DNA of 52,176 nucleotides, filler included, from Perkinsus olseni (GCA_013115125.1; 2 parts of 2 records of this genome joined end to end with filler, not necessarily neighbours in it), one strand, 5' to 3'. Numbered from the whole stretch's first letter, positions 3,700 through 26,055 are shown. Notes: generated by a model from the sequence alone, not told the origin. Numbers and translations are program-made.

Positions 3700-6146
3700 G
3701 TGTTCTGTTCCCTTAATAAAGTCTGCACACTCACCAGACAGCTGAGGTGCCAGGAGGCCTCCCCTTGAGCGTCCAACTCAGCAATCTGCGTTCTGATCCG
3801 CTCCGCCACGCTATCAACTGATCCTCGCCTGATCAATAACGACAAATAAAATGCAAGCTGGGCTATCTCACATACCACTCCATCGCGAAATCATCTGCTC
3901 CTTCATGGCCGCTGACGCTATTACGTACTTGCCGAGGCGGCCGACCACCCACCGCTTTTGGAGACATCGACATCGGGACTGAGAACAACAGCAATCCCGA
4001 AGGCCCCCTCCAAGAAAACCTACCCACGCCGCCCTCGGACAACCTCCGACTCACAGCCGGGGTCCTTCTAACCTCATCACAGCTGCTTCGTCGGGCTCGC
4101 TTTCGCCCGCCCGCCTTCGGGTACTCGAGCGTTGTGGTCAACACCCTTGTGGGGTACGAGGGCCGGGAGAGGAGGCTGAGGTTACGGCGTCCCCGATGTT
4201 TACACAAAGCATGCATTACTCAGTCTTTGACACTGTAGTAGTCGCTGACGACATCCGGTCTCGACCCAGGATACGAGTTGTGGGAGTTATGGTATGGTCG
4301 AGCGAAACTGACAACGTATCGATTCCTTGGGATGCATATCGAGCGAGGAACTTCTTGTCAATCAAAACAGTCCTGCTCGTCCCGTCGCCCATATGCTCTC
4401 AAGAGGTCTATTCGTAATGCCATCGTCCAGTTTATGAACTGGGAGCGGAGGCAGTCCTGTTCGACGCGCTCTTCATGATGTGAAGAAACTCCACCGGCAC
4501 TCGAGCTCCAGTACTTCCATCACATACTACAGCAATGGATCCGGCACCCCCACCCCCAGCCCCAGTACCACCTCGCAGCCGCTTCGCGTTATCTACTGGG
4601 GAGGTTATTGCGTGATGGTTCGTGGAGGAGGACGGCGGCGGCACCAAGAGCAGGCCCGAGGTCCCTTTGGACTCGGCCGCCTTGCTGTTATGGCAAAAGT
4701 CGATTCGGGCGAAAATCACCTGCCGGGAGTACTGCTGGAGGGGCGATCTAACGGAGGCGCACTTCGGCCAGCCAATCGATCAACAGCTTCCTCGCCGCCC
4801 TCACTTCTTGACGGCTGCCGTACTCGGGCCTGGTATAGTTCAGCTGGTCACAATACTGTCTTACCATTCAAGAGGCCGCCGGATCTATCCCCAGGGCCTC
4901 CATTCTCGCCATTACTTGAGCTCATCCAGTTCAATGCAGTCCAACCTAACCTGCTCCTTGCAAGTGACATCATTCAAGAACAACTCCTTCTTCCGCATCG
5001 AGTCCCGCAGACCCCCACTGCCCTGACACCACCACACGAGTTATGTTTCTTCTCGGGTGAAATCCCGCGGCGTAACCCTCTAGCTGCGCTTGGACTCGCC
5101 CTATGATGAGCCTTCCCCAACATCACAACAGCCACCACGACTTTCAGCGCTCCCGACTGATCGCCCATCCCCAGCAGCTCATCATGCTCTATCAAGCCGA
5201 TGTCTACGTGTACAGCCGCCCTATAAATCCCACGGTTTTCGTCAATTTTCATACCAAATTTCGGCCAGAACTTTCTCCAAGAGGACCAAGAAAATTCGCG
5301 ACAGCCGGCATGCTTTCGAGATGCCCGCCACCCTGAAATCTGCATCACGGAAGACCGGTGGAAGGGTGATCTATCAGCTGCCACAAAGCGTTACAAATCC
5401 CTTCTAACAATCAATTATCAGAGTGCGAGAAAGGATGAAGCTGCTTAGGCCACGCACCGCAAACCGACCTACCCCGCTGTCCAGGGACTCCTTACTCTCC
5501 GCCAGAAGTTCGTTGAGTGTTGGTACGATTGAATTTCTTATAATAGATAAAGTTGACAATATCTGATAAAACGCCATCCGTGGGATTCGAACCCGGAACC
5601 TACCCTACTTGAGGGTGTTTCGAGAAACTCCTGCATTTTGCCTCCACTGCATCGATCTGCGTTGTTGTTATCGGCGATGATAAATCAGCGCTCGGTGTAT
5701 CTGTCGATACAGTCGCCGAGATTTTCGGGTTTTTCCCGATTTTTCCGGAAATTTCTGCAAATTTGCCAATCGCACACTCTGATGGTTCCTCTAGCCAACG
5801 AGCCACGACAACGCCCGACCTTTGATGGTGATGGACGACGGCCAGCTCCTCCGTACACCCGTCGTGTCACCACCCACTGGCCGGCCGTATCCGAGGGCCG
5901 CCGACGGGAGTGTCCTCTTCCGCAAAGTTCGCACACAGTGTGTCGGAACCTATGGCAGACTGCTATGAGAGAGGTCCCCGGTTCGAATCCCAGCAGGACC
6001 TTTTCTTCCGAGTACACAGACTCTTCTGTATCGTCAATTCTCCTCTTCCGTGAGGAGCTCCTCTCGCTATTCCCTCCCGGAGTAACATCAGACGAAGACG
6101 AGGGGCGGTGGAGCAGGCCGCTCAAACGACGGAATAAAGAGAACAT
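3700..6146 (-). CDS. Multi-exon hypothetical protein; boundaries approximate
   Basis: ATG at 6146 (MFSLFRRLSGLLH...). Plausible GT-AG introns 5960-5999 and 5563-5608; the latter joins HPQ|ILSTLSIIRN in frame. No recognisable domain; 3' end uncertain. Confidence 0.35.
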
Positions 6147-6424
6147 CCTGTTCAACGCAGCAGCTGATGAATTCTCTTAGTGAACTCTATTGCTGTTTGG
6201 AGTGGATCATTACCTCACTCATATCCAGCAAGCTTCGACCTAAGATCCACTATCCTATGCTAGGCAAGAACGTCGTCCCTCCCAGAACGCAACACAAGCT
6301 CTTCGTCACATGCCCTGCGAATCTTCCGGCTGCGCATGACGACAGACGAAAAGATACGCCACGAGGAGAATGGTCCATAAAAGGTCGAATATAAAAACCC
6401 AATATGAATAGCAGGCACTGCTGT

Positions 6425-23129: not shown

Positions 23130-26055
23130 ATGGCCGATGTTCACTTCTTAGGTAATGTCTTCGATGTACTAGGAAGTTGGTGGACTTTTTTTGGGTTCTT
23201 GTTGTTTTGGTCTTCCCTTTCACTAACCTGACCTGACTAGAATCCTTCAATCGATTCGGTCTTGGAGGCCGAGTCTTCGGTGGTCGCTGCCGTCAATCCC
23301 AATGAGTATTTCCTGCGCCAACCCACAGCGGCATATACCCTTTCGATATCGCCATCAGCCGATTACACCGTGCTGGGTCTGATGATGATTCTTACAGACA
23401 CATACCGCTTACTCAGTCCGACTAAGTGATAGACTACTGTAATTTTCGTATTTCGCTGATCCTATGTTCCTGCGATAAGAAGCAACGCTAAATTCAGCCC
23501 TCCCGATAGAACACAATCAGAGTTAATGTCGTAGAAAGGCAAGCAGCATGTAGGTCAATAGTGTCGCTTGCTCCGACACAACTCGTTATTGTACAAAACT
23601 CCCTTATGGCCACCCCGCCCATCTCTGACTCATCACTACGACGTATCACTGTGCGAGTACATCTCAACGACGAACCACTATCTTCGGGCTCACAAGAGCT
23701 CCTGCTCATTACCACCGTCCTCCACCAGTGGCGAGATCTTGTCGCGAACAAGATCCGAGGGAGGGTTCGGGCTTGGCGTGTGGAACGCTGCCTCCTCCGT
23801 ACGGTGATCGGAAGACACCTGCAAGTATGGCAGAGGCAAATGGTGGCTACCAGATGGTATCGATGTCGCCTGAATGCGAGACTGAAGGACACGCCGAGTC
23901 GAGCGGATCTCTCTGAGGCCGGCGCGCTGACTTCGGTCTACCTCGCAGCCTGGCGGAGAAGAACTTTGGATGTCGTGGAGGCGACCAGACGATTGTCCAG
24001 AGTGAGCGAGGCCAGGGTATAGGGGGAATTTCTACAAGTCGTTTACCTCGTTCAAAGCGACTATCCCCCATCAGGATCACATCCTAGGAGTGACTAGGTC
24101 GTCTGTGTTTCCCGCCTGGCGTCACTTCGTACAGCACCACCGCTTGCTTCGAGGACGCGCAGAGGCGCTGCATCGTCGCAAAGGGCAGCGTCATGTTGTA
24201 GCATACTTCCGCGACTGGTAGGATAGGACAGACGATCCGTAGCACGAGAAGATCCCTTCTCAGGGCTCTAGAGACCTTCAATATCAGCCCACGCATCATC
24301 CGTGCTATGAGGCGAGCGGTCAGAGGAACCTTACTCAGTTGGAAGGATGTGACTCGCCATCTGAGTGCTTGTCGGACAGAGAGTTTATCACAGTGGAAGA
24401 GACGTTGTGAAGAAGCTATTCGAGTGTGGCTTCGAAAGGCCTCGGGACGCGTAGGGGACCGAGCTCAGCGGCAAATTCTCCCCCTCCCTTCCCAGGTATC
24501 GTTCATCCCGTCGCTCATCTGGGCCGATCCATCTCTCCACCTTCGAGTATTCTTTCGGTTGCTGTCGACAATAGCGGTCCGTCGACGACAATTGAGGCAG
24601 TCCTTCTCCCGCGCTGCAGCTTTGAGGAAACGGCATTGCCAAGTCATCAGCGTAGCCAGCACCGTGATGGCTTGGAGGGCTCGTCAACATCACCGAGCAC
24701 ACGTGTCATGGAGATGTCTGAGCAACTGGGCCGAGAGTGCGACGCGAGTAGCAAATCGGCGAGCGCAGGCGAGAACGCTGTTCCGGAGGGTGATGAACAG
24801 AAGGATCGCGTCATGGCGAGGACTGGCGACCCGACGCAGACAGGCCAGGTTGGTCCGGTCTTCCCTCGGGGCATCAGCGTGGTGCCAGATGGAAGCTCAT
24901 GCGTATTGTCACACCGGACCTCAGCGATTACAACACTAACCCCGGTGATGGCATCGTAAGGGCGAATCTACATCGCTGGCGAGCTCTCACTGCTCGCCGG
25001 AAAGAGACGCGAAATTCACGAGAATTAGTAGGTCTCTGATGCTGAATTCAATCCTGATGGCCGAAGTGCCTCAGGTCCTCTTCCTCCGCAACGGACGGTA
25101 TTCTGCTAAGAAAGATACAGCAGCACACTTCAATGCTTGGGTCGACGTCATCTCTCAGCGGCGGCGGTCCGCTGCCGTCCAGCAGTTGTACAACCGAATG
25201 ATGTTGCAACAGCCCTTCACACGCTGGATGGGATGGTCCCAGTCGGTCGTAGCTGCTGATCTAAGTTTGGTTATCCCGAGGCGAAGGGCTGCTGTTGAGA
25301 GCATCTTTGCGGAGTGGAGAAAACTGAGGAAGGCGACGGCCTTCGGTCGGAAAGGTAGGCGACACAGCTGCAGTGTTCAACACCGGGTTTTGCAACACCG
25401 CAGGAGACTATTTCGTAGGAAACCTGACGTGAGGTCTCTAGTAAGGACTCTTCACGTACCTTCGTGAAAACCTTGGCGCGGGTAAAGGAAAGTCGGCGGA
25501 AATATCGATGAATCCTCTAACTTTGGTCGACGGCGCATGGTCCATACTGTGGGCAGCAGTGCGTTACATGCCCAGCACTTCATCCTGTTCAGTGGACTCC
25601 CTGAACAGCCTCATTGACGCCGGTGTCCGGGCTAAGGCGCTCAGGTGGTGGAGGTCTTTCACACTACTGGACGAGCTTGCCGGACGAAGAGTTTCGTGTG
25701 CACAAGATAGGGCCTTCCAGTAGATATTTAGACCCCGGTTCGAATCCCATGACGACCTTCTCAGAGTTTGGCGAAAGCATCAGGCTGTTAGACGATGGAG
25801 GTCTGCCCAGCTTCACAGCGCTGCGGTCGGCTGCCTCCGAGTTTGGCGGCATCGGTACAAACGACGTGCCGCTCGTCGCCGTGCAGATCAGAGGTTGGAG
25901 AGATCTCATTGGACCCGCCTGAGACGGTTTGTCATTCAAGGATGGTCATCGGTTGTCGAATACAAGAAGGGCGTAGCAGAAAAGGTCCACCGATCGGGAC
26001 ACGGACGCTTTCGAGTTTTGGTCTGCTCAGGGAAGGCTCTACAGGGCTGGCAGCG
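23130..26055 (+). CDS. Sfi1-repeat-like (centrin-binding) basic helical protein, multi-exon, runs into the assembly gap
   Basis: Successive ORFs with periodic Trp in Arg-rich helices (LHQWRD, LQVWQR, LAAWRR, LLSWKD, FNAWVD, FAEWRK, LRWWRS, FQVWRK). Intron 25720-25764 is in frame. Family call is from pattern only. Confidence 0.55.
23438..23484 (+). repeat. 5' fragment of the TRIM LTR family
   Basis: TGTAAT...TCGCTGATCCTATGTT..GATAAGAAGC matches the LTR start. Confidence 0.6.

Follow-up and report, generated by a model that had tools for sequence, protein, structure and literature searches.

The window analysed here, one stretch of 52,176 nt (filler included) in which two parts of the Perkinsus olseni genome (GCA_013115125.1) are joined end to end, carries genes with very short introns, two true transfer RNA (tRNA) genes, and a dispersed family of units resembling the 3′ half of a tRNA gene; several of the short introns consist of little else than such a unit, and it is the possible origin of these introns from tRNA genes that is considered below. 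The whole analysis is that of this single 52-kb window, in which open reading frames are short. In P. marinus introns are reported to measure 39–1622 bp, the majority being shorter than 100 bp (PMC3101222). Introns were judged from related proteins, from the reading frame, and from RNA, the latter in the form of contigs from four public runs aligned over 5790–25789, with 15 of the 37 joints listed; the stretch 22465–25789 is free of contigs from these runs.

Searched for with at most one mismatch, the T-loop motif GGTTCGAWTCC has 14 matches, compared with 2.2 ± 1.7 in 100 shuffles, none of which reaches 14. Two of the matches belong to true tRNA genes, tRNA-Gln(CTG) and tRNA-Pro(TGG), as identified with ARAGORN and Rfam; the other 12 are orphan units which read, in this order, anticodon-loop region, AGGTC, T-loop, 12 nt, discriminator, and T-run. 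With an nhmmer profile, 12 strong and six degenerate copies are found, to which a second iteration adds none at E < 0.01. Conservation extends beyond the search motif: in the 12 aligned copies A44 is kept in 10, G46 in all 12, and C48, C49, and C50 in 10 each; a purine discriminator stands exactly 12 nt past the loop in 10 of 12, and immediately 3′ of it, at alignment columns 47–49, T is present in 10, nine, and nine copies, respectively. T-loop (with the B box), variable loop, 12-nt spacing, discriminator, and T-run are thus in the register of a 3′ part derived from a tRNA gene. The layout is, as judged from sequence, that of a tRNA-gene 3′ half with its RNA polymerase III (Pol III) terminator; the T-run of the true tRNA-Gln gene occupies the same place as in the orphan units.

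The units do not form a full cloverleaf; only the two true tRNAs are recognised by ARAGORN and, with its gathering score, by Rfam, and when the Rfam model is run over the whole window with E values up to 10 the halves are not reported. Applied to tight stretches, the same model gives a 5′-cut match to tRNA positions 32–71 at 9438–9478 (21.0 bits, E 0.0074) and a weak match to positions 31–71 that takes in a whole intron at 16170–16211 (13.4 bits, E 0.82). At anticodon-loop positions 32–37, four of the 12 copies read CT-NNN-purine; CCA directly follows the discriminator in one of the 12 only. The 5′ halves are not in excess in the window, where a D-arm pattern is matched nine times with 7.3 matches expected. 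An A-box-like pattern (TRGCNNAGTGG, one mismatch) has 33 matches where 17.7 are expected, with no exact match and no clustering. Split or permuted tRNA genes were considered and rejected, as 5′ halves are missing and the units are parts of introns that are spliced. Comparison of the flanks disclosed no homology past ~50 nt around the units, and a larger element enclosing them was likewise rejected, since the flanks share only a separate palindromic motif (see below) and overlaps of neighbouring copies.

Thirteen of the 18 copies are located in verified or probable introns of four genes, and 10 of these make up introns of 43–57 nt (six sense, four antisense) with both ends within or beside the unit; relative to the host gene, the orientation of the copies is balanced (six sense, six antisense). 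The gene for a calcium-dependent-kinase-like protein, with which the annotated 618-residue P. olseni protein P0008 agrees in every residue (15629–21259, 15 GT..AG introns), has five consecutive introns in its kinase domain (16169–16772) that each hold one strong copy, with the conserved kinase motifs continuous across them; the P. marinus protein P0010 is colinear over the junction of intron 16416–16464. The exact mapping of P0008 bears out what a preliminary description of this DNA had proposed for the intron at 16169–16211 and for the donors at 16271 (AG/GTC, the slash marking the splice junction) and 16416 (GTAATCG). Its view that whole short introns resemble tRNA 3′ halves, in sense as in antisense orientation, is supported as well, and the over-representation of such units is confirmed by the 14 matches against 2.2.

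Further unit introns belong to other genes. In the minus-strand gene at 9011–7420, intron 7683–7733 is skipped exactly by proteins P0012 (P. chesapeaki) and P0013 (P. olseni), the spliced translation matching P0013; this intron had been placed at 7683–7745, of which the CAG acceptor stands, whereas the donor was 12 nt off according to the proteins of the relatives. The spliced translation over intron 7830–7882 of the same gene is colinear with P0013, and an RNA contig begins at 7883; with the proteins of the relatives, this contig start agrees with the earlier view that the T-run at 7830 doubles as the tract of the acceptor. Intron 5950–5999 is documented by a joint at 5947/5998 (CT..AC) in contigs of all four runs, and the frame is continuous once it is removed. 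For this intron, initially read as 5960–5999, the donor at the end of the acceptor stem was correctly seen, but the CAG at 5960 is unused; the acceptor indicated by the RNA joints lies 10 nt past the anticodon-loop CTG. Intron 5563–5608 is probable by its reading frame, an in-frame stop following right after the donor and 52 codons being open past the acceptor, and on the same open frame the proposed use of its T-run as acceptor tract is probable too; no orthologue was found for the exon that follows, a search of representative proteins giving two weak unrelated matches. Removal of 40398–40446 from a Nop56/58-like gene yields one open frame, in which the next exon aligns, starting with its second residue, to positions 85–155 of Pfam Nop (E 3.3e-30).

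When introns of at most 60 nt are taken as short, 16 can be defined at 5.4–21.3 kb; nine are tRNA-half-like, three bear the palindrome, and four have neither. Eight of the 11 strong copies in this region fall into 15 of the short introns, together 4.7% of its length (binomial 3.5e-9); the sixteenth, of 58 nt, holds no copy, and including it lifts the share to ~5%. The kinase gene by itself has four of its five strong copies in 347 nt of short introns and one in 3430 nt of longer introns. The units exist, are tRNA-gene-like, and coincide with spliced introns, and both their orientations are used.

The palindrome, AAATCGATC-N3-TGATCGATTT, is a second repeat of the window (7561–7578, 13978–13995, 14923–14940, and 17339–17356). 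Three of its four copies are within GT..AG introns of 47–50 nt, at 7553–7600 (minus strand), 13950–13999, and 17324–17370. Two palindrome-bearing introns begin with GTGGGT, and P0015, a protein derived from an MMETSP transcript, skips 7553–7600. The repeat may represent another intron-filling family.

Table 1. True tRNA genes, units resembling tRNA 3′ halves, and the introns that hold them (coordinates of the window; splice positions in tRNA numbering)
Feature	Position	Strand	Details
Degenerate unit	4867..4904	+	nhmmer E 0.3, then 6.6e-5
Probable 46-nt sense-unit intron	5563..5608	-	T-loop 5583–5593, minus; donor CAA/GTAGGG; acceptor T-run + ATCAG
50-nt intron with antisense unit	5950..5999	-	T-loop 5980–5990, plus; donor at tRNA 71
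tRNA-Gln(CTG), true gene	7126..7197	+	ARAGORN; Rfam 65.9 bits; T-run directly after 3′ end
51-nt intron, antisense unit plus T-rich trailer	7683..7733	-	Acceptor CAG is complement of anticodon-loop CTG
53-nt sense-unit intron	7830..7882	-	Donor at tRNA 32; acceptor T-run + GTCAG
Orphan unit upstream of first coding exon, without splice evidence	9437..9476	-	nhmmer E 7.5e-9; Rfam 21.0 bits
Orphan unit between two plus-strand genes, outside introns	14807..14843	-	nhmmer E 1.5e-9; transcript contigs stop at 14777 and restart at 14889
85-nt intron, first ~32 nt a degenerate antisense unit	15671..15755	+	Donor at tRNA 72; RNA joint; P0008; nhmmer E 0.12, then 0.0067 after one iteration
43-nt intron, exactly an antisense unit, tRNA 32–74	16169..16211	+	P0008 maps exactly
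51-nt sense-unit intron	16271..16321	+	Donor AG/GTC in variable loop; T-rich trailer before CAG; P0008
49-nt sense-unit intron	16416..16464	+	Donor GTAATCG at tRNA 35; acceptor T-run + ATCAG; P0008
104-nt intron, antisense unit mid-intron, splice sites outside unit	16526..16629	+	RNA joint in 4 of 4 runs; P0008
51-nt antisense-unit intron	16722..16772	+	Donor at tRNA 77, acceptor at 27; RNA joint in 4 of 4 runs; P0008
1786-nt intron opening with weak degenerate sense unit (17969–17994)	17965..19750	+	P0008; nhmmer E 0.16, then 0.018
57-nt intron, degenerate sense unit	19910..19966	+	Acceptor T-run + AG; RNA joint in 3 of 4 runs; P0008; nhmmer E 0.018
Candidate 45-nt unit intron	25720..25764	+	GT..AG ends; nhmmer E 3.1e-6; frame open spliced or unspliced
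49-nt intron, degenerate sense unit, Nop56/58-like gene	40398..40446	+	nhmmer E 0.45, then 5.4e-5
tRNA-Pro(TGG), true gene	44444..44516	-	ARAGORN; Rfam 58.3 bits

Expressed in tRNA numbering, sense donors fall at positions 23, 32, 35, 37, 42, and 46 and sense acceptors at 79, 82, 83, 84, 90, and 96; antisense donors are found at 71, 72, 74, 77, 83, and 102, and antisense acceptors at 33, 32, 27, 22, -1, and -12. Sites near the tRNA 3′ end cluster, since it is there that the T-run or the acceptor-end complement serves for splicing, and those elsewhere scatter; with about ten short introns, the clustering is not separable from the effect of the narrow intron length. The idea that splice sites sit on fixed tRNA landmarks goes too far, as the positions are scattered and only two of the six antisense acceptors are at C32–G34. 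That tRNA features supply splice signals in both orientations is supported.

A route by which a tRNA gene could give rise to an intron can be envisaged as follows. Units of ~45–55 bp, stemming from tRNA-gene 3′ halves and including the terminator T-run, would land in coding sequence in either orientation, and a tRNA-gene 3′ half would by accident carry what a minimal intron needs. In sense orientation, a GT between tRNA positions 23 and 46 would become the donor, and the T-run with the first AG, 6–11 nt past the discriminator in four of six cases, would provide pyrimidine tract and acceptor. In antisense orientation, the acceptor end or trailer (positions 71–83 in five of six) would, by its complement, yield the donor GT; the pyrimidine tract would be the complement of the purine-rich positions 39–46 (GAAAGG-like), and the CAG or TAG acceptor that of a CTG or CTA located at the anticodon loop or directly 5′ of it. 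Copies that landed in exons would persist only if spliced, while those in neutral DNA would decay or get deleted, a scheme which fits the concentration of the copies in introns that they fill.

Taken together, it appears rather probable that the introns were created by old, by now diverged insertions of tRNA-gene 3′ halves, which would be introner-like without having the hallmarks of transposons. As with introners, one family is present at unrelated intron positions, and the intron is taken up by the unit, from which one splice site or both derive. Gain by insertion is the most economical explanation, since the copies are found in introns of which they take up the whole and not in the much larger neutral space; to this extent the route of intron gain through tRNA-half-like sequence that had been suggested at the outset is plausible, although the gain is deduced and not proven. 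The balanced orientation fits insertion at the level of DNA. As CCA is lacking in nearly all copies and the T-run is in register, the source would be a tRNA gene or an untrimmed precursor and not mature tRNA halves. Introns 5563–5608 and 16416–16464 are alike in the acceptor strand and in the bases past the T-run, which hints at copying of intron-sized units, or at one locus copied together with its flank.

A number of observations weigh against this reading or restrict it. No empty site was seen and intron gain was not observed as such, and all evidence stems from one 52-kb window, where the strong copies are confined to 5.5–25.8 kb. The Rfam tRNA model matches nothing in two of the four tight stretches tried, the outer pairs of the T-stem are kept in 15 of 36 instances, which is no better than chance, and the conservation of the T-loop is in part a matter of ascertainment, since its core served as the search motif. 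There is no consistent target-site duplication or terminal repeat, as judged by eye only, and the ambiguity at the junctions of unit introns, 0–4 nt, is the same as at other introns. The copies are far diverged, with 5–17 of 20 positions identical in the flanking blocks, and one of the unit introns is seemingly common to P. marinus, so the events would be old, and the picture is not that of recent mobility, which is usually asked of introners. An unpaired form, CCCCGG..CCCAG, is common to many copies and would be better explained by one diverged ancestor than by many independent tRNA sources. The orphan units so appear to be old, eroded relics and not functional parts of tRNAs. Metagenome contigs queried with P0008 contained only four distant kinases (23–32% identity) and no orthologous locus.

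The estimate of age draws on the partial P. marinus protein P0010, which has an odd segment of 16 residues exactly where intron 16169–16211 lies. Aligned with the frame-2 translation of this intron from P. olseni, the segment scores 28, a value reached by seven of 4982 random windows; the P. marinus gene model thus apparently reads the orthologue of the intron as coding. If this reading of P0010 holds, the intron and its tRNA-like content seem to predate the split of P. olseni and P. marinus, with which the great divergence among the copies agrees.

The gene models of the relatives are irregular at this place: P0010, besides seemingly translating the orthologue of intron 16169–16211, omits the exon following it, and the P. 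chesapeaki model P0011 omits two tiny exons between 16169 and 16464. Both oddities are likely annotation errors caused by tiny exons and introns. The gene upstream of the kinase locus (11828–14777; kinase locus 14889–21259) encodes a MIP18/CIA2B-like (DUF59) protein; the kinase proteins P0008 and P0011 are annotated “MIP18”, and P0009 fuses both genes, from which fused model the name on the kinases seems to have been carried over.

Three other explanations have to be considered. The units may be a tRNA-related repeat which entered introns already in existence, where insertions are tolerated, these having subsequently shrunk to the minimum until little but the unit was left; this we regard as unlikely, even though intron 16526–16629 presents a unit midway in 104 nt with both splice sites outside it, and even though three copies (9449, 14823, and possibly 25737) fall outside proven introns. 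In the introns of 43–53 nt the tRNA-like alignment extends up to or beyond both splice sites, leaving nothing of an older intron, and the roomier long introns and intergenic DNA, where such a repeat would have found space, hold few copies (in the kinase gene one in 3430 nt versus four in 347 nt).

The preliminary description had proposed anticodon-cleaved tRNA halves as pre-formed introns; on this view, halves of mature tRNAs would be reverse-transcribed and inserted ready-made. This proposal would account for the end of homology near the start of the anticodon loop in those copies that can be judged, for the CT-NNN-purine at positions 32–37 in four of 12, and for the absence of the 5′ strand of the anticodon stem (by eye) as well as of dispersed 5′ halves; moreover, a retroelement with a reverse-transcriptase domain is present in the window. 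It is nonetheless improbable, as a mature half would end in CCA, seen once in 12 copies, and not in the T-run that stands in register at columns 47–49 as it does in a gene or untrimmed precursor; furthermore, the likeness of introns 5563–5608 and 16416–16464 past the T-run points to copied DNA or an existing intron, and the 5′ ends of sense units are spread over positions 23–46. Very doubtful, finally, is a T-loop/B-box-like motif kept for a function (a TFIIIC site without Pol III, or a splicing signal) with only secondary likeness to tRNA: T-stem pairing is lost while the 11-nt core is conserved together with its 5′ flank, the core is partly palindromic and reads alike on both strands, and a retained core would agree with the protein segment of P. 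marinus, but the conservation of a core that was itself searched with is partly circular, degenerate copies with 2–4 core changes exist, a fixed 12-nt spacing to purine and T-run and an Rfam match to positions 32–71 are needless for a protein-binding site, and seven of the 16 short introns are spliced without the motif.

Apart from these introns, the window contains a retroelement of ~5.4 kb (32930–38292), flanked by direct repeats of 168 nt that are 99% alike and with an RVT_1 frame at 35515–36591, which looks like a recent insertion; a 127-nt tandem copy is found at 38006–38433. On the minus strand at 9300–9600, upstream of the first coding exon, a pyrimidine run followed by AG/GTTGAC occurs three times; these sites may be putative acceptors, for example for a spliced leader. 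An RRM-domain frame (47917–48726) is 93% identical to a P. olseni protein, 68% to one of P. marinus, and 62% to one of P. chesapeaki. A (GAT)n microsatellite of ~19 units lies at 6424–6480, and scaffold gaps are marked by two runs of 44 N (26056–26099 and 26112–26155).

The origin of new spliceosomal introns is an old question, transposon-derived introners being the known large-scale source. Here, a fragment of an ordinary cellular gene, one tRNA-gene half plus terminator, seems to act as a ready-made intron in either orientation, without a recognisable transposon. It is tentatively suggested, as a possibility somewhat short of an even chance, that Perkinsus has a genome-wide class of minimal introns derived from the 3′ halves of tRNA genes, introners of Pol III-gene origin that lack transposon hallmarks and are spliceable both ways, which together with the palindromic family would make up a large share of the introns of ~45–55 nt in the genus. 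If true genome-wide, intron gain would have a further, novel kind of source, and it would be explained in part why very short introns are so dense in Perkinsus; it would also mean that introner screens based on similarity can overlook short, old families. The case would be testable, as several Perkinsus genomes are public in which filled and empty sites can be searched for. On the practical side, tiny exons between unit introns seem to be mis-annotated in P. marinus and P. chesapeaki.

Some known systems share single traits with the units. tRNA-derived short interspersed nuclear elements (SINEs) are likewise of Pol III-gene origin, have a B box, and are dispersed in genomes. A SINE consists of a 5′ tRNA-related head with A and B boxes, then a body, then a tail which is A-rich or like that of a long interspersed nuclear element; unlike SINEs, the units are a 3′ half only, with no adjoining D-arm or A box, no tail, and no common flanks. 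Stress-induced tRNA halves have roughly the same extent, from anticodon loop to 3′ end; they are, however, RNAs from mature tRNAs ending in CCA, whereas the units are DNA copies followed by a T-run. With B-box-only TFIIIC sites (ETC-like), the units would share a B-box-like core, which is apparent by sequence only. The Dada transposons, described from P. marinus, belong to the same genus and target tRNA genes, of which there are hundreds of copies with unusual dynamics; they are 4.7–11 kb long, possess a transposase, and use TAGCTC in the A box as their insertion site (PMC3706591). Nothing Dada-like flanks the units, and Dada remnants were rejected as their source in view of the A-box insertion and the kilobase length.

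Closer are the systems in which introns multiply as families. The introner-like elements of Dothideomycetes are longer, are known in sense orientation only, and are not known to have any relation to tRNA. Like the introns described here, they are short introns which multiply as a family and degenerate to ordinary-looking introns (PMC11282704). The introners of Micromonas, Aureococcus, dinoflagellates, and Amoebophrya offer the fullest comparison: there as here introns at unrelated sites are filled by a look-alike family whose units provide splice signals, splicing takes place in both orientations, one gene can hold several, and the host is an aquatic alveolate (PMC9860276, PMC12130899, PMC7789003). 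The main texts of two introner surveys contain neither “tRNA” nor “SINE” nor “Perkins”, while their supplementary tables might list Perkinsus; in a literature search with supplements outside its scope, no paper was found that links tRNA genes or halves to spliceosomal intron gain, or introners to Perkinsus. Unlike introners as portrayed in those sources, the units measure ~45–55 bp, appear to be derived from tRNA genes, and are without terminal inverted repeats or clear target-site duplication, and in contrast to near-identical introners the copies are old and diverged. With respect to known introners, the units would therefore be new in their source (half a Pol III gene), in their size (~50 bp), and in the absence of transposon features.

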